Shown here one piece after another: positions 35,759 to 49,120 of a stretch of 64,000 nucleotides of DNA. The position numbers and the translations under genes were made by a program. Each line of letters opens with the position of its first letter. The stretch's first letter is position 1. Origin of the DNA: Patescibacteria group bacterium (lineage in GTDB: Bacteria > Patescibacteriota > Patescibacteriia > 2-02-FULL-49-11); NCBI GenBank assembly GCA_041645165.1, contig JBAZQN010000003.1:28198-92197 (forward strand), given 5' to 3'. The notes under the pieces were generated by a model. It saw nothing but the letters and a program-made list of their open reading frames with translations, was not told the DNA's origin and did not search any database.

Positions 35759-38443
35759 TTATTTTTTAATCCAAGTCCGAACAACTTCTTGAAAATTGCG
35801 AGGTTTCTGTTGTTGGGTTTCCCATTCTTCCTGTCTGACGTAAAGCATTTTGTAAACGACGTTCTTTTGATTCGCGTTTACATCCACGCACCATTGAGCA
35901 AGCCGTTTAATTTTCTCGACATCATCGAGATCCTCTCGCCCTTTGGTTTCAACGACATAGTATTCTTCAGGGCGTACTTTTACAATATAATCCGGGTAGT
36001 AATCTGAAATGCTTCCGTCCGCGTTTTTATAATCAATTTTGAAATGCACCGCAAAATAGTTTTTGGCGTAAGAAATTATATCCTCGCAATTTTCAAGAAA
36101 GCTCGCGAATTCCAACTCAAAATGGCTATCACCAATAATTTTATTAAAAATGCTTCGCTTTGGCACAATATACTCCTGATCTTTGACCACGAACGGGCGA
36201 CTTTTGCCGATTTTTATATAGTCCCGAATTTCCGTCTCGCCTTTATCCAAAACAGTGAGCGTGTTGATTTCTTTTTTGAATGTTTCAAAGATCGTCCGCG
36301 AAGCCTCAATTTCGGATAGATTGCGAAGCGAATTGAGGTTATCAAGATCAATACGCGTATTAAATAAATGTCCTTGGATAAACTCCTTAACCTTGCCGTA
36401 AAGTATGTCATAGCCGGAAACAAGCCGGAGTTCTTTCATAATAACCTGCGTAAAATATCCGATTACGCTTTGATAGTTAGGCACAAAATTGCTATCAAGC
36501 TCCGTTTTGTGGGTAATATCTCCGCTCGCTATATCACGAAAGACAATCTCTCGTTTTTCCTCCTCCGAAAACTCTTTGATAGGGATTTTTTTATGACCGA
36601 ATTTCGCGACATCAAGTCCGGACAAATTTTTATATTCGCGATAAATGCGGGGAGTAAGAACCGGAATTTGAATATCCATTTTCTCAATGTCCTTTTTCAT
36701 ATTCTCGCGATCAACTTCAACCACGAGCGGACTTTTTGGGCCGGTGCCTTCGCCCATCTTGCGGTGTTCAAATTCAACTCCCTCGTTTTTGATAGATTCC
36801 ACAAAATCCATAAATGCGTCAGTGCCTACAACACTGACAAGCTCCGGCAAGTCCGGATCGCGATACATTCGGCGCAAACCTCGTCCAAGCGTCTGCTCGG
36901 GCAGAATGTTGCTTTGCGCAACATAAGCCCGTAGGCCGACAATAGTCGTTACATTACGAACATCCCAGCCCTCTTTGAGCATAAGCACCGAAACAATCGC
37001 TTTGTACGGACTGTCGAGCTGATCAATCTCATTAGCCGCCTTACGCAGTATTTTTAGTTCTTCCTCTTTTTTGCCAGTTACACTTTCCGAAATTTCTCCG
37101 TTGTTTTTCGTGTGAATCACTAACACCGCGTCTTTTAGCTCCGCATAGGTGTTTTCAAGATATTCCGCCACCTCATCGCAATTTTTTGTATCATCTGTCA
37201 TCAAAAATAAGACTGCTTTTTTGCCGAGCTTAGTGTGCACGTCGTACACTTTTTTCCATTCAAGAAAACCGAGATGGATATAATCTTTATATTTCTCGGT
37301 ATACTTCGCGCTTTTGTGTTCCTGTAATTTTGCGCGGCTGGCTGAATCCGGCAAAACAGGGTGCTTAACGACATTTTGATGGATTGCTTCAACAAGCGGG
37401 TAGTCGCTTATCGTTTGCACAAAAATTGCGCCGCTGTTGTGCTTCGGCGTAGCCGTTACATCAACCTGCAAAGCAAGCTGACCACCTTTCATCTTGAGCC
37501 GATTGTGAATATCCTCAATTGCCTTGAACCACGCCAAGCGCGGATCGTGGATATGGTGGGCTTCATCGTTTAGCACAATAAGTTCGTCCACATTGCGAAC
37601 AATATCCCCAAGATCAAGTTTTGATTCGTTCGTCGCGCCAACCGGCTGCTTTCCAAGAAAATAATCGGTTGTATCGGGATCACCGAAGCTCGCCGACTCT
37701 ATCGCGCCCTCGTAGACACGGTGAATGTTCGTAAGAAAGATATTGCCGGTTTTTCGCACAGTGCCAATTTCATCCTGAATATGAAGCGTCATTTGAAAAT
37801 CATCGCGCCAGTTCCGTCCTTGATAGCCGTTGTCGGGAAGCACGGGATCCCCAAAAAATATTTTGAGTCCGTCAAAATCGGCGCGAATACGATCAAGAAC
37901 GATAATATTGGGCGTAATGACCAGAAAATTGCGGGCCAACCGCGAATCGTCCTCATAAAGTTTGTGATAGTAGCACCATGCCAAAATCAAACTCAATACT
38001 TTTGTTTTTCCACTACCAGTTGCCATCTTTACTACATATCGCGTCCATGTCTCGCTAAACATACTTGTTGAAATCGCCCGCGAGCTATCAAATTGCATAA
38101 GTGCGTATGGATCTCTCGCCTTGGCGATTTCATACAGCCAAATAATCGTTTCCACCGCCTCTCGTTGGGCAAAGTAGTATTGAAAAAGAAATATCTCGCC
38201 GTCTGATGTTTCTGTCGGATGATCAGTTAAAAACCACCACTTGAGCAATGTTTTGCTTGTTTCGCTAGCGCCGTCATAACCGGACAATCGCCAATCCCGA
38301 ACTTTTTTGCGAAGTTCGGCAACGAGTGGAGGGAGTAGTTTTTCATATCCCTTTTCACGCAAATTCTCATCAGCCGGAAACCACCGGATCGCCGGATCAA
38401 GAATTTCATATGGTGATTGTGGAAACTTTTGATGAAGTGCCAT
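35759..38443 (-). CDS. res: Type III restriction endonuclease Res subunit (SF2 helicase + PD-(D/E)xK nuclease)
   Basis: MATGSGKTKV Walker A, LNDEAHHI DEAH box, C-terminal DYYPDYIV…VVETKGRE nuclease motif; 894 aa. Confidence 0.85.
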   Translation of the reverse strand: MALHQKFPQSPYEILDPAIRWFPADENLREKGYEKLLPPLVAELRKKVRDWRLSGYDGASETSKTLLKWWFLTDHPTETSDGEIFLFQYYFAQREAVETIIWLYEIAKARDPYALMQFDSSRAISTSMFSETWTRYVVKMATGSGKTKVLSLILAWCYYHKLYEDDSRLARNFLVITPNIIVLDRIRADFDGLKIFFGDPVLPDNGYQGRNWRDDFQMTLHIQDEIGTVRKTGNIFLTNIHRVYEGAIESASFGDPDTTDYFLGKQPVGATNESKLDLGDIVRNVDELIVLNDEAHHIHDPRLAWFKAIEDIHNRLKMKGGQLALQVDVTATPKHNSGAIFVQTISDYPLVEAIHQNVVKHPVLPDSASRAKLQEHKSAKYTEKYKDYIHLGFLEWKKVYDVHTKLGKKAVLFLMTDDTKNCDEVAEYLENTYAELKDAVLVIHTKNNGEISESVTGKKEEELKILRKAANEIDQLDSPYKAIVSVLMLKEGWDVRNVTTIVGLRAYVAQSNILPEQTLGRGLRRMYRDPDLPELVSVVGTDAFMDFVESIKNEGVEFEHRKMGEGTGPKSPLVVEVDRENMKKDIEKMDIQIPVLTPRIYREYKNLSGLDVAKFGHKKIPIKEFSEEEKREIVFRDIASGDITHKTELDSNFVPNYQSVIGYFTQVIMKELRLVSGYDILYGKVKEFIQGHLFNTRIDLDNLNSLRNLSEIEASRTIFETFKKEINTLTVLDKGETEIRDYIKIGKSRPFVVKDQEYIVPKRSIFNKIIGDSHFELEFASFLENCEDIISYAKNYFAVHFKIDYKNADGSISDYYPDYIVKVRPEEYYVVETKGREDLDDVEKIKRLAQWCVDVNANQKNVVYKMLYVRQEEWETQQQKPRNFQEVVRTWIKK

Positions 38444-38627
38444 AAAACTATTTAAAGTTTCAACTAATTCCAGCCCTTATTTTAAGCCAAATTTTAATCA
38501 TTTTTTAACTAATTCGTCTCTCTTTTAACTAACTTCCAAACCGCAATTCCGATCTTTTCTTCTAATCCCTTAGCTAGGATAATGACCCGCCCAGAAACGG
38601 CCTTAAAATAGAGCCTAAATCGGCCTA

Positions 38628-40082
38628 TCATGTTTTATTATCAACCCCCCTTGAAAATAAACCCTTGGGCATCTCTTGCCCAGGCTTTCTATAGTAACGA
38701 TCCTTTTTTGCCTTACCAATTTTTTCTAGCAGTCCTTTTTCAACCCAGGCCTTCAAAATCCTAGACATTCTTAAGACATCGTGTACGCCGGTTGTTTCAC
38801 GGGCCTGTTTATTCGTAATGCGATAGTTTGCATCTAAATATTTACTGACGGTATCCCAATATTCAACTTTTTGCAGATTAAGAAGTATAAGCAACACCGA
38901 GTTCGGTTTTATTGTCGGCGGAAAGTATAACGGTTCGTATAGATTTTTCTCTTTCATCACTTTATACATACGATCAACGCCTTCTCCAATATCCAGGTTT
39001 GGAGCAACTTGAAAACGATTCAATGTTCTTAATATTAAAGGGTTTCTGGCGAATCTTTCTGACCGTATATTTTCAGTAGTGATGTGTCCCGGATAAGTCC
39101 CCGGACTTTCCACCTCAACACGATCGTCAAAGAATCTAACCTGTATATCGTTCTGGACAAAATAATTTCTATGAATAACTGCGTTCGTAATAGCTTCTTG
39201 AAATGCCCACTCGGGAATCATAAAAGTTGGTCTAAATGAGGCGCCGCTTAGTTTTGGTCGAGAACTTTTCGCCACACTCTTAAAATAGTCAACAGCTTTT
39301 TCTATCTGATGCAAGAGAGATCCTTCAAGAGTAAATGGCCGGTCTACAAAATTTGGCTCACCTGTATAATTTGGTTTGGTCCCATAATAGTGAGAAATTT
39401 TAATTCCGCATTTATTTTTCAACATAACCGATGGATTTTTACCGAACAATAAGACTCCGGCTGTGGTGAGCTCGTGCTTTCCAGCTTGATCAATCGAAAG
39501 TCCGTTATCTTTCAAAAACTGCCAGTCATTCAAGCTTTCACTTGCGGTATCCTTTTTATATTGCTTCAGTAAATTTTCATCCACGTCGTCGAGCGTAAAA
39601 ATGTCTGATTTCTCACTTTCAAATTTTATAGCGCCCTTCTCATACTTAAGACGCATTATTTCCGTAGAGCCGATTTTTACATTCTGCCTGCCTTTCCTTA
39701 CGAAAGTATCGCCGCGCTTGAGGGAATGCACATCATTGCTCTTTTTTACACTCACTACAAACAACTTGTCCGGCTGCCTATTCACATTGGTTATATCGAG
39801 TTCAAATTTTCCCCAAAGATTAAGCGGTGGTTCAATTTCTTTTTCAATGAGCTTCAAAAACTCTGAAATATTATCCAGGTTTTCACTGATTCCAAGTAGT
39901 CGTTTGTGGCCTTCTGCTTTTGACGGATCTTCAAGCCCAACGACAATGTAACCACCTTCCGTATTTGCAAAGGAAACAACCGTCTCTAAAAGTTTCGCCG
40001 GCTCAATAGCGGCTCGCTTACACTCAAAAGTCTGCCACTCCTGGGTATCTAGAAAAATCTTTATTATTTCTTGGTCATTCAT
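38628..40082 (-). CDS. AlbA_2 (Schlafen-like) DNA-binding + HATPase_c_4-type ATPase protein with C-terminal wHTH
   Basis: N-terminal divergent-AAA/AlbA_2 fold (…VSFANTEGGYIVVGLED…), central region often mis-annotated as RecG C-terminal domain, C-terminal HTH; start overlaps mod stop (ATGA). Confidence 0.65.
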   Translation of the reverse strand: MNDQEIIKIFLDTQEWQTFECKRAAIEPAKLLETVVSFANTEGGYIVVGLEDPSKAEGHKRLLGISENLDNISEFLKLIEKEIEPPLNLWGKFELDITNVNRQPDKLFVVSVKKSNDVHSLKRGDTFVRKGRQNVKIGSTEIMRLKYEKGAIKFESEKSDIFTLDDVDENLLKQYKKDTASESLNDWQFLKDNGLSIDQAGKHELTTAGVLLFGKNPSVMLKNKCGIKISHYYGTKPNYTGEPNFVDRPFTLEGSLLHQIEKAVDYFKSVAKSSRPKLSGASFRPTFMIPEWAFQEAITNAVIHRNYFVQNDIQVRFFDDRVEVESPGTYPGHITTENIRSERFARNPLILRTLNRFQVAPNLDIGEGVDRMYKVMKEKNLYEPLYFPPTIKPNSVLLILLNLQKVEYWDTVSKYLDANYRITNKQARETTGVHDVLRMSRILKAWVEKGLLEKIGKAKKDRYYRKPGQEMPKGLFSRGVDNKT

Positions 40083-42235
40083 ATATTCACCTCAATTATC
40101 TTCATCGTATCATTGCCGAAAATATCCACGACCTTGATTGCAAGCTTGTGCTTGCCCTTTCCAAGCTCGCGGGAAATAGATGTAAGTTCAAGCTCGCGCT
40201 TCTTCTTCGTACGGAAATCCTGCCACTCGTTTTCAAACACATAATCGCCAGTCCATACTTCTTCATATTCCAAGAGGTTCACCTGCGTTGGATTCGTTGA
40301 GCCGTCCAGTTTTATCTGCGTGGCTTCTTTTTTGGGTACGCGAACAACTTCTTTTTTGCTCTCAAAATTAAAATCAACCGCCCAATAATCAATCCAGTCC
40401 GTCCATTTTTTCGTGAGCGTCTCTCGCTCCACAATACCATCTTTGTCTTTGGATATTTTGATGATTTGGCCGTTTTCCACCACCAGCTTTTTACCCCCGG
40501 CTTTAAGATTTTCCTCAACTTCTTTGATTGAATCCTGATTATAAAATACTGAAAAATCAGTCAGCTCAACCGCTACCATTCCTTTTTTAACAATAGGTTT
40601 TACTTCAATATAGCTCACATCATGGAATACTACTTGATTCTTCTCAATCGCGCGCTTGTCAAACACATCGCGGGGAATGTATTTGAGCGCGAGATCAACG
40701 CCTTTGCCTTTGGCTTCTTCCTGAATGTTGGGAAATAATCCCATTTCAAACTCAAACGCCAAAACATCAACTTTGGTGATTTGCTTTTCAACTGCTTCTG
40801 TTATCACCGCGTCAACGAACAGCCGCGAGACCGGCATATTGATTGGCCCAATGGCAACGAGGCGAGAATTTTTCTTACCATGAAATGTTTTAAAGCCGTC
40901 AAAACTTTCGGCTTTGTATGCCGAAATAATAAGTGCAATAAAATCTTTTTCTTTTTGAGCGATTTGCTTTTGTTTCTCATCTTCGCGCAGGTTCGGATTG
41001 ATACCAACAAACATCTGGCGTTCGTATTTTCCGAGATTTAAAATTTCAAAGGCGCGAAAATCTTTTCCCGCTTTTGCCAGTTCACGCTGAACACCAATCA
41101 TTCGCTTGCGAGTTGTATGAATTGAGAATTTGCCTAAATCAGAACCAATCCACTTACGCCCGAGCTTTTCCGCAACAGCGAGCGTAGTACCCGAACCAGC
41201 AAAAAAATCCGCAACGAGATCGCCTTCGTTAGACGATGCTTTAACAATTCTCTCTAATAAATCTTCATGTTTTTGAGTAGGATAACCAACTTTTTTGTCC
41301 CCTCTTAACGCTGGCAATTCGATAAAATTATCGGCCTTGTTTTCCGTAACTTCAAAATAAACAATTTTGCCATTTTCGTCTCTTAGTCTTTGGGCTTTCC
41401 CCGTAACTGGATCCCAGACATGCTTGCTTGCGGTTCTAAATCCTTCTTCATTTTTAATTTTTTCGTAAACAATATTCCAGATATGCTCACCCTTGTTTTT
41501 TGCGTAATAAAATACCGTCTCGGTATTTTGATGAAATTTTTTCGACAAAGCTTTTAAACCTACTGCTGTGTAATGTATGACAATTTCATTTTGAAAATTA
41601 TTTTCATTGAATATCTCATCCAGTAATATTTTAATATACGGGCTTACTCTCCAATCGCAATGCACATAAATACTTCCATCTTCAGCAAGTAAACCGTGCA
41701 TAAGCGACAATCTCTCATATATCATCGCGATAAAACTATCCGCGCCCTTGCCCCATGTGTCACGATACGCTAATTCTTCCAGCACGCCGGGCTTTTTAGT
41801 AAATTCTTCTTCCCCGACTTCAATGTTCATTGAAAAATCCGCACCAACATCAAACGGCGGATCAATGTAAATCAATTTAATTCCACCTTGTTCTTGGATT
41901 TCTTGCCGAAGCGGACCATTTTTCAAACTGGAAAGGATTAATTTGTTGTCGCCCCAAATGAGCTTATTCGTCCATCCTTTGAGCTGGCGGCCGCGAGTGT
42001 CCACGTCAAACAGGGCCTGCTGGAGCTTGACCTCTTTTTCGCTTCTCGGCTCATCAACCTGCTCAATAACTTGAAATGGCAAAACGACATTCGTAACCTC
42101 ACTCGTTTTTCCATTCCAGACAAGCTCCACCTCCTGCTTATCCGCAAAAAGCAAAAAACGATATTTATCCGGCAACGGCTTATCGGCTTCCAAGTATTTG
42201 ATAATATCCCGTTTTTCGTTATCTGCTATTTTCAT
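40079..42235 (-). CDS. mod: Type III R-M DNA methyltransferase Mod subunit
   Basis: IYIDPPFDVGADF (DPPF motif IV) and DFFAGSGTTLAVAEKLGRKWIGSD (motif I FxGxG) in N6/N4-MTase beta-class order; 718 aa. Confidence 0.85.
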   Translation of the reverse strand: MKIADNEKRDIIKYLEADKPLPDKYRFLLFADKQEVELVWNGKTSEVTNVVLPFQVIEQVDEPRSEKEVKLQQALFDVDTRGRQLKGWTNKLIWGDNKLILSSLKNGPLRQEIQEQGGIKLIYIDPPFDVGADFSMNIEVGEEEFTKKPGVLEELAYRDTWGKGADSFIAMIYERLSLMHGLLAEDGSIYVHCDWRVSPYIKILLDEIFNENNFQNEIVIHYTAVGLKALSKKFHQNTETVFYYAKNKGEHIWNIVYEKIKNEEGFRTASKHVWDPVTGKAQRLRDENGKIVYFEVTENKADNFIELPALRGDKKVGYPTQKHEDLLERIVKASSNEGDLVADFFAGSGTTLAVAEKLGRKWIGSDLGKFSIHTTRKRMIGVQRELAKAGKDFRAFEILNLGKYERQMFVGINPNLREDEKQKQIAQKEKDFIALIISAYKAESFDGFKTFHGKKNSRLVAIGPINMPVSRLFVDAVITEAVEKQITKVDVLAFEFEMGLFPNIQEEAKGKGVDLALKYIPRDVFDKRAIEKNQVVFHDVSYIEVKPIVKKGMVAVELTDFSVFYNQDSIKEVEENLKAGGKKLVVENGQIIKISKDKDGIVERETLTKKWTDWIDYWAVDFNFESKKEVVRVPKKEATQIKLDGSTNPTQVNLLEYEEVWTGDYVFENEWQDFRTKKKRELELTSISRELGKGKHKLAIKVVDIFGNDTMKIIEVNI

Positions 42236-42663: not shown

Positions 42664-43200
42664 CTAGACGCCGCCTGACAATTTATACTTGGCATGGCGT
42701 TGATCGCCCAGCCGCGCCACAAGACCGCGGTTGATGAGTTCTTTGAGCCGGTTAGTCGCGGTAGTGTCGGTGACGTGGAACGCATCCCGAATATCCTGAT
42801 TGGTGACCAGCGTGCCCTTCTGTTTGATGAAATCCACGATCTCCTGAAGACGCGCTTCATACTGCGCGCGCTTCCTGGTGTGTGCAAGCGTGAGATTGGC
42901 GTCCAGCTTGTCCTGAAATATACGGTCTTTGTCCGCATCCGTGAGCGGCTTCTCTACCTCTTTTATAACTTCTTTCACCACAGGCTCTGCGACAGGCGAC
43001 GTATCGTGTGTCTCCTGAATAGGTGGCTCGCTTTCTAGCGAAGGCGCGTCCGGTGCAGGCGGTTCAAATATAGACGATGGTTCTACCTCCGGCGCGGGCT
43101 CTATAACAGTCACCGGTTCAGCGACTGGAGCAGGTTCGGCAACTGGCGCAGGCGAAACCGGCGCGCTTTCCGGCATGGTCTCTTCTGAAGGCGCATCCAC
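42664..43200 (-). CDS. Pro/Ala/Glu-rich protein with C-terminal winged-helix DNA-binding domain
   Basis: N-terminal PAPVAEPAPVAEP low complexity; C-terminal TLVTNQDIRDAFHVTDTTATNRLKELINRGLVARLG HTH. Confidence 0.5.
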   Translation of the reverse strand: MDAPSEETMPESAPVSPAPVAEPAPVAEPVTVIEPAPEVEPSSIFEPPAPDAPSLESEPPIQETHDTSPVAEPVVKEVIKEVEKPLTDADKDRIFQDKLDANLTLAHTRKRAQYEARLQEIVDFIKQKGTLVTNQDIRDAFHVTDTTATNRLKELINRGLVARLGDQRHAKYKLSGGV

Positions 43201-43323: not shown

Positions 43324-43767
43324 CTATCCGCCGACAACGGCTGGTGGAGTCTTCGCTTGCCGCTTGAGGCGGCGATGCGTGCGGATGATGAGAATGATGC
43401 TTACAATAAAATATATCAGACCCAAAAGTGATCCATAAAATTCTCCGCTCCCAATCCCCAACGAATTACCGTCTCCGTTAGAACTATCCAGCACGATAAA
43501 AAGAATAGAAAGGGGAATATATATGCGGGCGAATTTGAACCAGTTAATAAAAACCTCCTTCTTTAAAAAAGCAAGTATAAACAGAAATGCCGATATTCCT
43601 ATTGACCACGCGAATACGACGCCAGCAACGGTGTCAAAAAAATTAAGGCAATCCCACCTAGCATTCATACAAATCCCACCATAATCTACCCGCGCAAGTA
43701 ATACTGATGCTACAGTTAAAACCAAGAGAAAAACGATACTAATGATCAATTTTTTGGTGTGTGTCAT
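43324..43767 (-). CDS. 4-TM membrane protein (paralog of 44559-44978)
   Basis: 147 aa hydrophobic; C-terminal IRTHRRLKRQAKTPP resembles VRENVKLRRSKQTTP of paralog. Confidence 0.5.
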   Translation of the reverse strand: MTHTKKLIISIVFLLVLTVASVLLARVDYGGICMNARWDCLNFFDTVAGVVFAWSIGISAFLFILAFLKKEVFINWFKFARIYIPLSILFIVLDSSNGDGNSLGIGSGEFYGSLLGLIYFIVSIILIIRTHRRLKRQAKTPPAVVGG

Positions 43768-43779
43768 AGGCAGTAGTTA

Positions 43780-44493
43780 TTATACCAACGAAGCCCGTAT
43801 CGTTTCAATGATTTGGATAAGCGGCTGGGCATCCGATGGTTTGATGAGGAACTTGGGGAAACCCTGCAATTGTTTGACCAATCCCTTGAGAATACCATCG
43901 GCGGCCTTCACAAGTCCTTTGTCTAGTAGTTTCTCCGCCACTTCTAATTGCTTGATAACCGCATTCTTCACTCCTTTCTTAATGGCAAGCGTATTCACCA
44001 CTTGCTTAAGCGCTTTGAGCGATTCCTTCGGATCGGGTTCTGCCGAAGGGGAAACGGTAACATCCGGCGTGCCGTCTCCCTGCAGATCAATTGAAAGACT
44101 GCTTGTAGTCTCAACTGTTTGCGTGATGAGGAACGCTTTGGTGTCTGGCGTGACGGGTATATTCGTATAGGCGGTAGAGTCAACCACTTCGTCATTAAAC
44201 ACCTCATCGATTTCGAGCGTGAACGATCCGAGAGCAAGACCCTGAATCTCGATGCGGTACTGATCTTGCGTATCCAAGCCCAGGTAAGTCTTTTCTCCTA
44301 TTTTGTAGTAATAACTATTGGGGACTTGCGCTTCGAAAAGTTGATCATTTGAATTTGGGACGGGGCCGGTGTGGTTGCCGAAGGAATTGGTCATATAACG
44401 GTCCTTTTGCGACACCCTCTCGAGGCGATACACGTAACAAATCAAACGCAAAAATCCCCCTAAAAAGGGAGAATCCACAAAGCTTAAAAGCAA
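43780..44493 (-). CDS. truncated paralog of the lipase-like protein (C-terminal domain only)
   Basis: Aligns along ~190 aa with the C-terminus of 44994-47999 (…TLEIDE…IPV…GDGT.DVTVSP…LK.VV.TL.I.KG.K.A.I.QLE.AEK…FP.FLI.P.DA..LI.II..IR..LV); no signal peptide; possibly a gene remnant. Confidence 0.45.
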   Translation of the reverse strand: MLLSFVDSPFLGGFLRLICYVYRLERVSQKDRYMTNSFGNHTGPVPNSNDQLFEAQVPNSYYYKIGEKTYLGLDTQDQYRIEIQGLALGSFTLEIDEVFNDEVVDSTAYTNIPVTPDTKAFLITQTVETTSSLSIDLQGDGTPDVTVSPSAEPDPKESLKALKQVVNTLAIKKGVKNAVIKQLEVAEKLLDKGLVKAADGILKGLVKQLQGFPKFLIKPSDAQPLIQIIETIRASLV

Positions 44494-44558
44494 TTGTGGA
44501 TTAGTTAGTAGGGAAGCGGATTTATGGACTGTCGCCCAATTGAGGTTTTGCAGCTGGG

Positions 44559-44978
44559 TTATTTGTTTGGAGTGACTGGAGACGACGGTGTTGTCTGTTT
44601 TGATCGGCGGAGTTTGACGTTTTCACGTACAATAAGGATGATGGAAGTTAGTAAGAAAATAACAACCATTGTCCATGTGATTGATTCGTGATCAATGCCT
44701 ACACTAAAACCCATTCCTGTCTCACCGGTTGCTGGTGCGAGAATTATGAGTACAAAAGCGATGAGGAGATAAACACGGGCGAAATTTAGCCATGATTGAA
44801 AAACCTTGATCTCCATGAATGTCATGGTAAGTGAGAGTAGAAATACTATTACAGAGAAGTAGGCGATTGCTGCGCCGGACTCTCCAACAGAATCTGACTC
44901 TGAGTAATTTAAAAAAGCACCTAGCAAAAAGCTGATCACCGATAGGAATAAGATTTTTTTAGGGTTAATTTTCTGCAT
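44559..44978 (-). CDS. 4-TM membrane protein
   Basis: 139 aa, hydrophobic, paralog of 43324-43767; immediately downstream of lipase-like gene. Confidence 0.5.
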   Translation of the reverse strand: MQKINPKKILFLSVISFLLGAFLNYSESDSVGESGAAIAYFSVIVFLLSLTMTFMEIKVFQSWLNFARVYLLIAFVLIILAPATGETGMGFSVGIDHESITWTMVVIFLLTSIILIVRENVKLRRSKQTTPSSPVTPNK

Positions 44979-44993
44979 ACGCGTATCGCGTCT

Positions 44994-47900
44994 TTATTGT
45001 ACCAACCGCCCCCTTATCTCGTCAATGATCTTAATAAGCCGCGTCGCATCCTCGGGGCTAATAAGAAACGTGGGAAAGTGTGTAAGTTGAGTCGTCATTG
45101 TTTTGAGAATTTGGCTCGCCACCTTGGGAAACCCTTTCTTGACGACCTTTTCCGCAGCTTCTATCTGTGCGATCAGCGCTTTTTTGAGACCCTTTTGGAT
45201 ATCAAGAGTCTGAACTATCTTTTTCAATATTACCAACGACACCCCCGCGTTGTCGGCTGTATCAGGAGTCACCGTTATATCATTCGTTCCGTTCCCATCA
45301 ATGTCCATATTCAAATTAATGGGCGTTAGTCCAGTATCTGTTGTTTGTACCGTGAGTGTCGCTATGGTGTGTTCGGCAACCGGGATATTTCTGATGGCCG
45401 TAGAGGCGACAAGTGTATCACCGCGCGCTTCGTCAATTTCGAGCGTAAAGGTGCCAAGATCCGTGCCTTTCAGGACGACGCGAATCGGTTCGCTTCCGTC
45501 CGCCCCAGCGTATTTCACTTCACCGGACTCCATGTAGTAGCTGTTCGGTATCGTCTTTTCATAGAGCCGGATATCTGAATCGGGATCAGAATTTTCTATC
45601 AAGCCCGTATGGCTGCCCAACGCATCGTAGAGATGAATGTCAACTGGCGAATGCAGGGTGAAATCTATGGTTGTGTCTGAGGATCCCTGTGTCGGCTCTG
45701 TTACGGTGATGTGTTTAGTGTTCTCTCCTTCTTCAGGGTGTTCTTTCCCCTGGATGATATTGACAATGAACTCCTGCAGATCATCTATTTCGAAGATGCT
45801 GCCGTGATCTCGATTTTTTCTAAGTCGAAGATTCTCTTTATTATGTTTTCTTATATTCACATAATACCGATCCACTCCCTCCATCATGAGCGCGCTGGGC
45901 AGCACGACCGTTCCATCGCCTTGTATAGTCATCGGTTTGACTGTTTTATCGAGCGAACTGAGAGAAGCGCAGAAGAGACCGCATGAATACGTGATATGCG
46001 AAATCGTCTTAACACCCCATCCGGCAACTTGCACTACCTGCATGTGCGGGGGCGGCGACCATATATCGAGCGTGTCGTTATGCGTGGCTATAGCCCGCGA
46101 GAGAAGGTGCGGTTTGAGCACGTTGGGGTATTCGGCATCTTCCTTGTCAGGTTCTTGTCGCGTTCCTTCATCGCCTAAGAGGAATTTGTAAAGTTCTTCA
46201 GAAGAGGAAATATGTGCACCCGCGCGATTCACAAGCGCACCAAGTTTGCTGACACTTTCATCGAAGTTGATGACTGGCGTATGCACGATGTCGAAATACT
46301 TTTCTGACGGCAGAAGATCATACGCGCTTATCATGTTTTCCGCGGCCTCGCGCGCACGTTCTTCGTCCATGAGGAAACCGATATCATCAAAAGGCAGCTG
46401 CGCAGACTCGGCGTGCAGAAGCGCCTCAATCGCTTTCGGCGTGCCTAGCTGTGGCGGAGCAACCATGACGAGACGGTCAATATGATTGTAAAGATCGTGG
46501 TAAGGGTGATTTTCGTTTGCAATCTGAGTCAGAAGCGTTTTAGCGATCAAGCCGCCCATGCTATGCGTAATAATGGTGACATTGCCGCTTTTCGAAGATA
46601 CAATAAGTTTTTTTATCTCTTCGAGGAGATAGGGCGTTTCAGTGACTCCACTGTTGTAATTGACATTTTCTCCGTCCACGATACCGCTTCGTATGAGGTG
46701 TTCGAAATCAAGGCGCCAATCGTAGGGAAGGGCTTTCCACTCGTTGATGATTCCGTCATCGTCATCTGCTAATTCATCCATGAACTTTTTAAATTTTTCA
46801 TAGAAATTTGCCTGCAATACTCCGGTCGGGTCTGGAATAATATTGGCTTCGTCAATGATGTCGCGGGTATAAATACTTTTATCCAGACTTTCTCCTGTGG
46901 TAGAAGATGTATATAATTTTTCCACGTCAAAATTTCGATTTGGTTCCCACAGTTGATTTTCGAAAATTTCTTTTTTGTAGAGTCTGCTACCTTGAATACC
47001 AGGAAGAAACGCCACATTCGAGTAGCCTGTTTCGAATGTGAGTTCTCCGGTTGCGGGTAATCGCGATGACTCCTCGCCGTCGCTGGTTTCAAAATGGTAT
47101 TGGTAATGCCCTTTGGGGAAGGTATCGGTGCGGACGTATTGTTCTCCGTTGGTGTAATTGCCATCGCGCAGCGAGATAGGTATGGTTTCGGCAGTGTCAG
47201 GCTGCAGGAAGCTAAGGATGGCTCCGGTGCCGTCGTCTCTGGAGATTGCCACATACGGCGGCGGATCATTGTCGGCGTCGGTGTAAATTATCTTAAATAC
47301 GAGCGGGGTAACATCCGCCGTGCCCTTGTCCGGATTGATACCGTCGGTTCCATAACCGCTCTCGGCAGAGAATGAAAGGATGGGCGCGTGATTCGAGGGG
47401 AGCGCGGGGGTGAGGGTAAAGGTGAAGGGGCCATCCACCCATGGTTGGCCAAGATACCGCCAGTGTTCACCGTCCGTGGCTTGGAAATAGTATTCGTAGT
47501 TAGCGGCGTACGGAAATCCCGCTGGTACGGTTACGGTAAATTGCTCGCCGTCCGTATAATCTCCATTGTGGAGGAGAGGGAAAACGGGATCGGGAGCGGT
47601 GTCGCGGTGCAGGCGCAGTTCAGTAAAGAAAAATGGGTAACTTTCGGTGGTGCTGACGAATAGTTTGATCGCTTCTTCCGTTTCATCGTCGTCATGCGCG
47701 AGCGCGGCAGGGATGAAATCGTGGCGCGTCAGTACGGGCGCTGCGATGACCGGAGGATGGTTGTCCGGATGGGTGTAAACCATGGAAAAGGTGAGCGGGG
47801 TATTGGCAGGCGCGGTGTCAAGATTAATTGCGTCCGTACCGTCAAACCCTTCGGCGGGAGAGAAGGCGAGCGTGGGAGGGTGCGCAGGAAAAAACGCCCT

Positions 47901-47999
47901 TGCCGGATCGACCGGATTGGGAAGAATGGAAGCAATCGCCCAGGCCGTAACAGTGCCTATGAGAAGTAAGGAAATGCGTTTGAGAATTGAGAAGTGCAT
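44994..47999 (-). CDS. secreted multidomain protein with LCAT/PGAP1-like alpha/beta-hydrolase (lipase) domain
   Basis: N-terminal signal peptide; two repeated beta-domains (…NGDYTDGEQF… / …DGNYTNGEQY…); ALPYDWRLDFEHL and VTIITHSMGGLIAKTLL (GxSxG nucleophile) typical of LCAT-like lipases; 1001 aa. Confidence 0.6.
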   Translation of the reverse strand: MHFSILKRISLLLIGTVTAWAIASILPNPVDPARAFFPAHPPTLAFSPAEGFDGTDAINLDTAPANTPLTFSMVYTHPDNHPPVIAAPVLTRHDFIPAALAHDDDETEEAIKLFVSTTESYPFFFTELRLHRDTAPDPVFPLLHNGDYTDGEQFTVTVPAGFPYAANYEYYFQATDGEHWRYLGQPWVDGPFTFTLTPALPSNHAPILSFSAESGYGTDGINPDKGTADVTPLVFKIIYTDADNDPPPYVAISRDDGTGAILSFLQPDTAETIPISLRDGNYTNGEQYVRTDTFPKGHYQYHFETSDGEESSRLPATGELTFETGYSNVAFLPGIQGSRLYKKEIFENQLWEPNRNFDVEKLYTSSTTGESLDKSIYTRDIIDEANIIPDPTGVLQANFYEKFKKFMDELADDDDGIINEWKALPYDWRLDFEHLIRSGIVDGENVNYNSGVTETPYLLEEIKKLIVSSKSGNVTIITHSMGGLIAKTLLTQIANENHPYHDLYNHIDRLVMVAPPQLGTPKAIEALLHAESAQLPFDDIGFLMDEERAREAAENMISAYDLLPSEKYFDIVHTPVINFDESVSKLGALVNRAGAHISSSEELYKFLLGDEGTRQEPDKEDAEYPNVLKPHLLSRAIATHNDTLDIWSPPPHMQVVQVAGWGVKTISHITYSCGLFCASLSSLDKTVKPMTIQGDGTVVLPSALMMEGVDRYYVNIRKHNKENLRLRKNRDHGSIFEIDDLQEFIVNIIQGKEHPEEGENTKHITVTEPTQGSSDTTIDFTLHSPVDIHLYDALGSHTGLIENSDPDSDIRLYEKTIPNSYYMESGEVKYAGADGSEPIRVVLKGTDLGTFTLEIDEARGDTLVASTAIRNIPVAEHTIATLTVQTTDTGLTPINLNMDIDGNGTNDITVTPDTADNAGVSLVILKKIVQTLDIQKGLKKALIAQIEAAEKVVKKGFPKVASQILKTMTTQLTHFPTFLISPEDATRLIKIIDEIRGRLVQ

Positions 48000-48089
48000 G
48001 AGGGTAAGGATAATCCCTCCAAGTATGCCATTACCGTATCACGCGGACGGAATTGCGCAAGTGGATATATTTTCTGTTTGTTTTCTTGT

Positions 48090-48207: not shown

Positions 48208-48258
48208 CAAGGGCGAGATTCGAATCCCAAACCAATCCGCCGCAATTTCTCTGGCTCC
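48205..48258. repeat. right copy of 54-bp direct repeat (putative attR), overlapping last 7 nt of tRNA-Asn
   Basis: ctccaagggcgagattcgaatcccaaaccaatccgccgcaatttctctggctcc. Confidence 0.6.
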
Positions 48259-48326
48259 GAGACCGGGATTCGAACCCGGAACCAACTGCTTAACAGGCAG
48301 CTGCTCTACCATTGAGCTATCTCGGA
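48252..48326 (-). tRNA. tRNA-Asn (anticodon GTT), CCA encoded
   Basis: Minus-strand TCCGAGA-TA-GCTC-AATGGTA-GAGC-A-GCTGC-CTGTTAA-GCAGT-TGGTT-CCGGG-TTCGAAT-CCCGG-TCTCGGA-G-CCA folds as cloverleaf with 7-bp acceptor, GTT anticodon. Confidence 0.85.
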
Positions 48327-48422: not shown

Positions 48423-48782
48423 TTATTCTTCTTGCATCTTTTTGTGCCGCGCCATCTGTGCGGCATAGGAGAACGCGTAGAAATATTTCTGCCAAAGCTC
48501 GTCAGTTGAGCCGTACTGGTTTTCTCCCACAAAATAATCAGCGAGCGCTTCCCGCACGCGCGCCACTTCTTTCAAGCGCGGATACATTCTATTGCGGGGA
48601 TCTTGCAGTGTCAAATCAAGAAGTTCGAGCGCCCTGTCAAAGGCGAGGGCGCTATACTCCCCATTTCCTTTTTTTCTCCAGCTGATGGTCCGTTCCACTT
48701 CGCTGCCCACGTTCGCAAGCTGTTCCATGAATGGCAGCTCAAACCACCTGCCATTGGCCAATTGTTGATGCTGGAATGTCAT
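48423..48782 (-). CDS. hypothetical protein
   Basis: 119-aa ORF, 4-nt overlap (ATGA) with upstream ORF. Confidence 0.45.
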   Translation of the reverse strand: MTFQHQQLANGRWFELPFMEQLANVGSEVERTISWRKKGNGEYSALAFDRALELLDLTLQDPRNRMYPRLKEVARVREALADYFVGENQYGSTDELWQKYFYAFSYAAQMARHKKMQEE

Positions 48783-49120
48783 AATTTCACTAAATCCCGC
48801 ACCACCTCACATATTTTTTTTTGCAGTTCAGCGTTATCAACCCCGCGGCTCCGGTTATCCTGCCAGGGGCGTATATTAATCATCGAGTCAAATTCTATCC
48901 ATTCCTCTCCCTCCGCCTCAGGTTGCAAATTGATGCCCCACAGATCTTTTTGCGCTGAACCGTTTTGTAACATGAACGCTTCCTCATCCGCATGCAAATC
49001 TCCCCCCACCGCCATAATTCTCTTCTCAATATCCACCACTGCCTTCACCAAATTTCCATAGAAACCCTTCGCCATATCCCGGAGCTCTGCGATAGTAATA
49101 TGATCGTTCACAATTTGCAT
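48779..49120 (-). CDS. hypothetical protein
   Basis: 113-aa ORF directly downstream of rpoD, co-oriented, coupled to next ORF. Confidence 0.45.
   Translation of the reverse strand: MQIVNDHITIAELRDMAKGFYGNLVKAVVDIEKRIMAVGGDLHADEEAFMLQNGSAQKDLWGINLQPEAEGEEWIEFDSMINIRPWQDNRSRGVDNAELQKKICEVVRDLVKL

Follow-up and report, generated by a model that had tools for sequence, protein, structure and literature searches.

The window analysed here is a 64,000-nucleotide (nt) stretch of contig JBAZQN010000003.1 (assembly GCA_041645165.1) from a Patescibacteria group bacterium. The element in question is a cluster of four open reading frames (ORFs) that encode a predicted exported lipase-like enzyme (LIP), two small proteins with four transmembrane (TM) segments each (TM-A and TM-B), and a free-standing counterpart of the C-terminal domain, or tail, of the enzyme (the orphan). 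The ORF list places all four on the minus strand, co-oriented and arranged in two pairs, in agreement with the original prediction made from this stretch, which had joined 44994-47999 to 44559-44978 and 43780-44493 to 43324-43767. The locus comprises the following features.

48252..48326, minus strand: tRNA-Asn(GTT) directly upstream of LIP (ARAGORN), a positional marker common to the ortholog locus L001
44994..47999, minus strand: LIP, a full-length mosaic gene for a 1001-residue LCAT/LPLA2-fold serine hydrolase, predicted to be exported (ORF, Pfam, AlphaFold2 and Foldseek)
44559..44978, minus strand: TM-A, a 139-residue four-TM partner protein, predicted N-in/C-in (ORF; family hidden Markov model (HMM), E 9e-33; family charge profile)
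43780..44394, minus strand: orphan C-terminal domain gene, 204 residues (homology to the LIP tail; start from comparison with locus L003)
43324..43767, minus strand: TM-B, a 147-residue four-TM partner in a putatively displaced cassette (ORF; family HMM, E 1e-34)

The short gene is real, but its proposed length of 237 residues from a TTG at 44493 is not. In the close relative L003 a TAA codon interrupts the in-frame extension upstream of the gene, and the short genes of the window and of L003 both begin with MTNSFGNHTG. The TTG was therefore rejected as the start, and the gene is taken to begin at the ATG at 44394 and to encode 204 residues. As read from the sequence, the protein lacks an N-terminal hydrophobic segment, consistent with the predicted absence of a signal peptide. 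Pairwise alignment by BLASTP shows significant similarity between the two C-terminal domains: the short protein matches LIP residues 784-1000 (45% identity over 217 residues, E 7e-53), the part of the enzyme, originally given as the last ~190 residues, to which its similarity had been said to be confined. The homology of the two membrane proteins, described earlier as paralogs, is likewise borne out, with 32% identity over 82 residues (BLASTP, E 1e-13; 30-32% across comparisons) and matches of both to one family HMM (E 1e-32 to 1e-34). NCBIfam assigns a family to none of the four proteins. LIP and TM-A share a reading frame and are separated only by a TAA codon and five further codons (RRDTR; 44979-44996, minus strand); stop-codon read-through at this junction would fuse the enzyme to its membrane partner.

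The enzyme is composed of a signal-peptide-like N-terminus, two beta-domains, a catalytic core and the tail.

47931..47999, minus strand: signal-peptide-like N-terminus, MHFSILKR followed by ISLLLIGTVTAWAIA and then S (read from the sequence)
47025..47888, minus strand: two repeated beta-domains, residues 38-200 and 201-325, the apparently resident, orthologous part of LIP (GC 0.55)
45750..47024, minus strand: catalytic alpha/beta-hydrolase core, residues 326-750 (GC 0.46)
46713-46724, minus strand: YDWR, residues 426-429, at invariant column positions
46560-46562, 45915-45917 and 45804-45806, minus strand: catalytic codons of Ser480, Asp695 and His732, respectively (codons verified)
45000..45674, minus strand: C-terminal domain, a beta-sandwich (residues 776-910) and a four-helix bundle (residues 912-1000), from AlphaFold2 secondary structure

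LIP matches the Pfam family LCAT (PF02450) with 42.1 bits over residues 400-674 (gathering cut-off 21), and the same family is precomputed for essentially all of the 120 homologs listed. The lipase motifs YDWR (426-429) and HSMGG (479-483), recognised at the outset, fall in invariant columns of an alignment of 63 sequences (LIP and 62 homologs), in which H479-S480-x-G482-G483, D695 (within GDGTV), H732 and Y426-D427-W428-R429 are all invariant; the Ser480/Asp695/His732 triad is complete. An AlphaFold2 (AF2) model built on the same homolog alignment has a mean predicted local distance difference test (pLDDT) score of 80.5 and a predicted template-modelling (pTM) score of 0.78, and is confident for residues 200-1001. 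Its top Foldseek match is LPLA2 (4x92/4x90; E 1.7e-10; template-modelling score (TM-score) to target 0.69-0.70), with ~460 aligned columns on the 377-residue target, and LCAT (5bv7, 5txf and 6mvd) is matched with TM-scores to target of 0.61-0.63. A sequence search of the PDB with LIP found no match to any chain. On the basis of the family match and the modelled fold, the classification of LIP as an LCAT/LPLA2-family serine hydrolase with an LCAT-type fold is sound. The enzyme shares with LPLA2 (PLA2G15) and LCAT a Pfam match above threshold, the invariant triad and a fold that covers nearly the whole of those enzymes. In contrast, sequence identity is only 12-16%, and LIP is set apart by its length of ~1000 residues, its extra N-terminal binding-type domains, its C-terminal sandwich and helix bundle, and its paired four-TM gene.

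The N-terminus looks like a Sec signal peptide, as the original prediction had held: AF2 places a helix at residues 4-25, and a hydrophobic N-terminal segment is present in 130 of 210 long homologs. The two beta-domains that follow are true repeats, as had been suspected, their local alignment scoring 161 against 32.9 ± 5.7 for shuffled sequences (z = 22). They are 72-90% identical to those of the homolog P0002, encoded at L001, and 73-83% identical to those of P0001, encoded at L003. Across the family the N-termini are highly variable and include parallel beta-helix/NosD, LamG, PQQ propeller and Ig-like repeats, whereas the core and the C-terminal domain are conserved; the core is the most conserved part, with a mean distance of 0.58 versus 0.84 for the tail.

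The C-terminal helical tail of the earlier description is predicted by AF2 to be a four-helix bundle. A beta-sandwich followed by an up-down four-helix bundle at the C-terminus of a (predicted) exported enzyme is the arrangement of the FIMAH/FHB module (CBM32 plus four-helix bundle; Neobacillus novalis GH92, PDB 7nsn), to which the window tail is 11% identical. The FIMAH model PF22888 scores below its cut-off of 24.8 against the orphan (12.8 bits, E 0.18) and does not match the LIP tail; precomputed PF22888 matches exist in some homologs. No function has been established for the CBM32-FHB module even in the solved GH92 enzyme (PMC10167667).

The pair formed by the enzyme gene and the four-TM gene is a conserved, previously uncharacterised operon of Patescibacteria. 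A single-sequence LIP query of species-representative genomes returned no relatives, and the scan was run with the homolog alignment, which gave at least 382 relatives; their record titles are nearly all Patescibacteria/Candidate Phyla Radiation (CPR), with a few under other taxon names. Overall there are hundreds of homologs, and almost all come from metagenome-assembled genomes of Patescibacteria/CPR; several genomes carry two or more copies of the enzyme. HMMs built from the window proteins were searched against all ORFs of 83 fetched loci and of the window. In 64 of 76 evaluable loci a TM-family gene lies on the same strand no more than 300 nt downstream of the enzyme gene, so the cognate small membrane protein gene of the original prediction is a partner conserved across the phylum. 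The median gap is 6 nt, and in 49 loci the genes overlap or are at most 20 nt apart. At eight of the other loci the partner position is taken by a different small multi-TM gene. A literature search found no paper that ties LCAT/PF02450 to Patescibacteria.

The four-TM character assigned to the membrane proteins holds, with four hydrophobic segments and a positive-inside pattern for an N-in/C-in orientation. Of the family members, 98% have a net positive charge on the inner segments and 77% a net negative charge on the outer loops, a profile that points to N-in/C-in topology with two short external loops. Residues W63, F66, G88 and S112 are conserved in the family. One locus departs from the scheme: at L055 (7944-10160) the enzyme ends in its own TM helix and a basic tail (GIIALGSVIAIMILLVLKALSQKK), and there is no four-TM partner gene. 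This is the sole case, as none of the 210 other homologs has a C-terminal TM anchor.

How the second, truncated pair arose is best seen from the relationships of its parts. The original prediction viewed it as a remnant of a tandem duplication, and a duplication of the enzyme-TM pair in situ, followed by loss of the 5' four-fifths of the second copy, would indeed be expected to leave a full pair and then a truncated pair on one strand. A local duplication fits locus L009, where the orphan tail and TM4 are 83% identical to that locus's own tail and TM1 (the tail part on its own shares 90% identity with L024, a paralogous locus of that genome). In the window, however, the two tails are only 45-47% and the two TM proteins only 30-32% identical, while the orphan is far closer to the tails of full-length homologs from other genomes: 76% identical to P0009 (E 2e-107), 70-78% to P0002, 72-84% to P0003 and 78% to P0004. 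LIP itself is composite. Compared with P0002, its first and second N-terminal domains are 72% and 90% identical, its core 49% and its tail 48-52%. The P0002 gene at L001 lies directly after a tRNA-Asn(GTT), as LIP does, and P0002 is therefore regarded as the positional ortholog; the N-terminal domains of LIP are thus orthologous to P0002, and the core and tail are not.

The extent of the non-orthologous part is indicated by L003, a 4.8-kb contig found through the 91%-identical protein P0001, which carries the same four genes. In sliding comparisons, LIP, L003 and L001 are roughly equidistant up to residue ~326; from GYSNVAFLPG onwards LIP and L003 are ~100% identical and L001 only ~43%. The shared segment is the following.

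44365..47063, minus strand: apparently recently exchanged block of ~2.7 kb, comprising LIP codons ~312-1001, TM-A, the 164-nt spacer and the first ~12 codons of the orphan (identity to L003)

In nucleotides the block is 99-100% identical to L003 (the spacer 99%), whereas identity falls to 40-87% in the flanks, where synonymous sites are saturated. The downstream junction coincides with the conserved FGNHTG motif, ~36 nt from the start of the orphan gene, and the identity switch within LIP falls at residue ~326-340. GC content drops at the left junction of the block, from 0.55 in the N-terminal part, like that of neighbouring housekeeping genes, to 0.46 in the core, and is 0.40 in TM-A. Since the same block with the same junctions is found nearly unchanged in a second lineage with flanks only ~70-80% identical, it must have moved between lineages recently; judged by this identity profile, it is a very recent horizontal exchange between diverged lineages, with both crossovers at short conserved motifs. 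An exact-DNA scan of metagenome contigs for the spacer of the block gave no matches, and a metagenome scan for close relatives of the orphan gave none that could be confirmed.

These comparisons make the tandem duplication very improbable: the orphan is closer to foreign tails than to the adjacent LIP tail, and the adjacent LIP block has been imported, so that the two pairs are better described as alleles of different lineages joined by recombination. We strongly infer, from the sequence relationships, that the second pair is the product of a cassette replacement that stranded a resident tail. The resident gene would have consisted of the two N-terminal domains, its own core and its own tail, followed by its own TM gene, beside tRNA-Asn as in L001/P0002. 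A foreign block containing core, tail, TM-A and the terminator-bearing spacer would then have replaced the segment between GYSNVAFLPG and FGNHTG, with loss of the resident core; the resident tail and TM-B would have been left downstream as an orphan cassette. Since then, recombination at the two conserved motifs would have carried the block from one lineage to another.

Plus-strand GC skew is positive at 44001-48000 of the window (+0.05 to +0.14 in 2-kb windows; +0.24 in the N-terminal part of LIP and +0.17 in TM-A) and negative in nearly every other interval of this mostly minus-strand-coded region, which could reflect amino-acid usage or foreign origin.

Whether the stranded tail is still expressed was considered together with the transcription signals of the locus, for which promoters and terminators were called as consensus matches.

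44996..45025, minus strand: promoter-like site TTGACG-18-TACAAT with TG, in the last codons of LIP and upstream of TM-A (10/12 matches)
44447..44472, minus strand: terminator-like hairpin (TCTCCCTTTTTAGGGGGA and a T-run; hairpin 44472-44455) between TM-A and the orphan, inside the 164-nt spacer (consensus scan)
43779..43808, minus strand: promoter-like site TTGAAA-18-TATAAT with TG, in the last codons of the orphan and upstream of TM-B (11/12 matches, the best in the region)

The consensus scan shows no promoter-like site between the hairpin and the orphan gene. With a terminator-like hairpin upstream and no promoter-like site after it, the orphan is probably silent. The TGGTATAAT of the TM-B promoter-like site overlaps the orphan stop codon, and TM-B may still be made, given how near this site is to consensus. 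The same placement recurs in the family. Of 67 enzyme-TM pairs, 18 have an extended -10 motif, TGnTAnAAT, in the 40 nt before the TM start, where the background density predicts 0.36; it usually overlaps the stop codon of the enzyme, which leaves only ~6 nt before the TM ATG. This arrangement suggests that the TM gene is expressed independently and is nearly leaderless. The motif also precedes 5.8% of other long ORFs in these genomes versus ~0.5% by chance, and extended -10 promoters may be common in Patescibacteria. If the TM promoter is embedded in the end of the enzyme gene, it is easy to see why fragments of the tail would accompany TM genes.

Alternatively, the 204-residue protein could be a functional standalone domain under selection, such as an adaptor that serves TM-B in the cytoplasm or a protein that regulates the enzyme; the original prediction had offered both a remnant and an adaptor. 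The ORF is intact in two lineages with the same start. The two orphans are 79% identical in amino acids, differing at 21-23% of residues, with a nonsynonymous divergence (dN) of 0.13-0.14 and saturated synonymous divergence (dS), and show no rate acceleration relative to full-length tails. The window orphan keeps 24 of 26 conserved tail positions and its L003 counterpart 23 of 26, the AF2 model (pLDDT 94.6) retains the four-helix bundle and a beta-sandwich without its first two strands, and AAGGA stands 7 nt upstream of the ATG. A comparison of Shine-Dalgarno motifs is uninformative on translation of the orphan, as most window genes lack such a motif. The dN/dS ratio between the two orphans was rejected as proof of function, because their divergence may predate orphaning: with the adjacent block ~100% identical, at least one lineage may have acquired its orphan only very recently, in which case the tails would have diverged while still part of full-length enzymes, and the signal of selection is thus not specific to the orphaned form. 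Against a standalone role stand also the hairpin without a following promoter-like site, the missing sandwich strands, and the lack of a signal peptide on a domain that follows an exported enzyme in every full-length homolog examined. Furthermore, an exhaustive search with the 204-residue orphan returned 1498 homologous proteins, mostly as the C-termini of proteins of 600-1500 residues. Among 80 species-representative loci there is no other gene for the full C-terminal domain alone, apart from the frameshifted pseudogene at L026 and tail-only fragments. Two short (~200-residue) matches considered as standalone tails, P0150 and P0139, were set aside, as P0150 lies 10 nt from a contig end and the upstream stop of P0139 lies 12 nt from one. 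The remnant half of the original proposal, a leftover of a once full-length gene, is thus retained, and a functional standalone domain is unlikely.

Truncated copies of this kind recur. At L076, L023, L009, L037 and L007, 5'-truncated second copies or tail-only fragments lie directly upstream of extra TM genes; the L076 copy is a 325-residue piece that begins at the catalytic Asp. Four TM genes stand in tandem after one enzyme gene at L009 (1836-4146). At L026 (7956-10201) a degenerate copy has lost ~75 codons, among them the catalytic His region, and is frameshifted by the deletion. What remains includes a 204-residue tail ORF whose start, just after the GNHTG motif, almost coincides with that of the window orphan; the motif may thus be a hotspot of recombination or deletion. 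The two TM genes at L023 (10036-11284) have a near-identical 3' end (90% over 105 nt) and diverged 5' halves, a pattern that suggests partial gene conversion among TM paralogs.

The original prediction further proposed a secreted phospholipase effector with a membrane partner. The lipase family, the triad, the fold and the partner gene are borne out; the effector role and the role of the partner are argued here from homology and context. On these grounds LIP is probably an exported phospholipase/acyltransferase that acts on host membranes. The enzyme would be exported and act at the membrane interface as a phospholipase A and/or acyltransferase, presumably on the membranes of the host or of neighbouring cells, and would yield lysolipids and acyl chains for an organism unable to make lipids. 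The four-TM partner, often transcribed from its own putative extended -10 promoter in the last codons of the enzyme gene, would provide immunity-like protection of the producer's own host-derived membrane. Traits of an immunity gene are its independent promoter-like sites, the tandem arrays, its transfer together with the enzyme core and the retention of TM-B after loss of the enzyme. Self-protection is tentatively ranked first among the roles of the TM protein, at somewhat less than an even chance, and docking is placed second, at clearly lower likelihood; the self-anchored enzyme of L055 and the short TM loops call for caution about the immunity interpretation.

In the docking alternative, the four-TM protein would hold the exported enzyme on the symbiont surface through the C-terminal sandwich and bundle, tail and TM protein acting as lock and key. 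The tight and often overlapping gene junctions suggest co-translation, and the recurring orphan unit is always a tail fragment with a TM gene. The L055 enzyme has a TM helix of its own and no partner gene, and the tail resembles C-terminal accessory modules of secreted enzymes from single-membrane bacteria. Such anchors are nevertheless absent from the 210 other homologs. Mirror-tree analysis showed no tail-specific co-variation of tail and TM protein after control for the core (partial Mantel r 0.04-0.06, p 0.14), with low power, since the tails are very divergent, and the charges of tail and TM external loops show no complementarity (rho 0.04). Up to four TM genes per enzyme gene (L009) are hard to square with a 1:1 complex, and tail fragments could persist merely as carriers of the TM promoter. 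Taken together, these results leave docking with a minor share of the probability.

A polymorphic toxin-immunity locus was considered as well, in which an antibacterial phospholipase would be matched by TM immunity proteins and the orphan cassettes would serve as a reservoir of specificities. Orphan C-terminal toxin/immunity cassettes are found in polymorphic toxin loci of the CdiA-CT/CdiI and Rhs-CT/RhsI types. The layout here is similar: a full gene with a cognate small gene is followed by 5'-truncated C-terminal pieces, each with a small gene, in the window, L003, L076, L023, L009, L037 and L007. The small genes have promoter-like sites of their own inside the upstream gene and form tandem arrays, a conserved motif marks the junction, the cassette displaced from the resident gene persists downstream, and the enzyme-TM block has recently passed between lineages. 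A PF02450 lipase gene has also been noted in a type VI secretion island (PMC3942780). In contrast to CdiA and Rhs proteins, the hypervariable part of this family is the N-terminus, so that the combination of conserved N-terminal delivery and variable C-terminal toxin is not found. The catalytic domain is central, conserved and inside the exchanged block, and the C-terminal piece has an accessory fold without catalytic function. The product of the small gene is an integral membrane protein, and the leader points to Sec-type export instead of a contact-dependent or type VI/VII route; a dedicated secretion system was not seen in the window, which was not searched systematically for secretion genes. 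In addition, the family is near-universal and multi-copy in a phylum of obligate symbionts, which fits a core lifestyle function equally well. A true toxin-immunity locus is accordingly quite unlikely, and by analogy the locus works like polymorphic-toxin orphan-cassette systems without being a member of them.

A comparison can also be made with the Tle effectors of type VI secretion, membrane-attacking serine lipases of the GxSxG type whose Tli immunity proteins are periplasmic or lipoproteins. LIP shares with them the GxSxG serine lipase signature and an adjoining cognate gene, sometimes with tandem copies. It differs in that the partner is a four-TM protein; moreover, no type VI genes were seen in the window (not searched systematically), and Patescibacteria are single-membraned.

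Taken as a whole, an account that combines the conserved operon, the cassette replacement and the likely function of the two proteins is the best explanation of the locus and is moderately probable. Several points weigh against it. L003 is a short metagenomic contig, so that an assembly chimera is conceivable; it is unlikely, as the diverged flanks offer no 141-nt identical stretch for (de Bruijn) switching. Promoter-like sites in the region are not more numerous than in shuffled sequences (8 versus 6.9). The orphan may not be silent, being intact in two lineages with 24/26 and 23/26 positions kept, no rate acceleration and an AAGGA upstream. The external loops of the TM protein, at ~12 and ~16 residues, are unusually short for a protein that would inhibit a large enzyme, and TM distances track those of the core (r = 0.56), maybe through shared phylogeny only. 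Lastly, the substrate of the enzyme and the role of the TM protein are inferred.

A considerable part of bacterial diversity belongs to the Patescibacteria, which live attached to host cells and cannot make lipids of their own. Field lipidomics showed CPR bacteria, in which lipid synthesis is missing, to be enriched in lysolipids, possibly because phospholipase A acts on lipids of other cells (PMC7242380). A 2024 perspective listed the mechanisms of lipid uptake and breakdown in Patescibacteria as still to be identified and mentioned proposals that phospholipases on the cell surface damage the host envelope (PMC11665869). Harvest of host lipids by the enzyme, with an immunity-like partner, is plausible from homology and context, and the widespread, often multi-copy combination of an exported LPLA2/LCAT-fold enzyme and a membrane partner is a concrete candidate for the lipid-acquisition step. 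The stronger proposal, that the pair is the missing lipid-acquisition device, a surface LPLA2/LCAT-type transacylase through which host lipids are built into the symbiont membrane, is doubtful at present. In such a device the variable N-terminal domains would bind the host envelope, the enzyme would strip acyl chains or make lysolipids, and the four-TM partner would shield the symbiont membrane or receive the product. Exchange of the core-tail-TM cassette at the two motifs, with orphans left behind, would let lineages retune it. If true, this would explain both the lysolipid enrichment of CPR bacteria and the building of membranes without fatty-acid or phospholipid synthesis. The truncated copy is in itself a modest finding, the value lying in the conserved, undescribed operon and its recombination behaviour: a full gene with an orphan C-terminal cassette, an architecture familiar from polymorphic toxins, can also form in a Sec-exported enzyme of an ultrasmall symbiont by exchange at conserved motifs. 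If the functional interpretation fails, an ordinary mosaic hydrolase gene with a leftover fragment remains.

Directly downstream of the locus lies a type III restriction-modification island (35759-42235, minus strand, GC 0.40-0.43) with three genes.

40079-42235, minus strand: N6/N4 DNA methylase
38628-40082, minus strand: Schlafen/AlbA_2 plus HATPase_c_4 protein
35759-38443, minus strand: Res helicase/endonuclease

A different defence set, a PLD-SNF2 helicase and an Eco57I/MmeI-like methylase, occupies the same relative position at L001, so that the region after tRNA-Asn, enzyme and TM genes looks like a variable defence island. TM-B is adjoined downstream by a gene for a 178-residue protein (42664-43200, minus strand) with a repetitive N-terminal half rich in Pro, Ala and Glu (PAPVAEPAPVAEPVTVIEPAPEVEP...) and a C-terminal MarR/winged-helix-like domain (sub-threshold in Pfam); a TATAAT precedes its GTG by ~25 nt. 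On the other side, between tRNA-Asn and rpoD (48423-49120, minus strand), lie genes for a DUF5674 protein (48779-49120, E 1.9e-33) and for a 119-residue protein without a family (48423-48782), which overlap by 4 nt and may form a small two-gene module.

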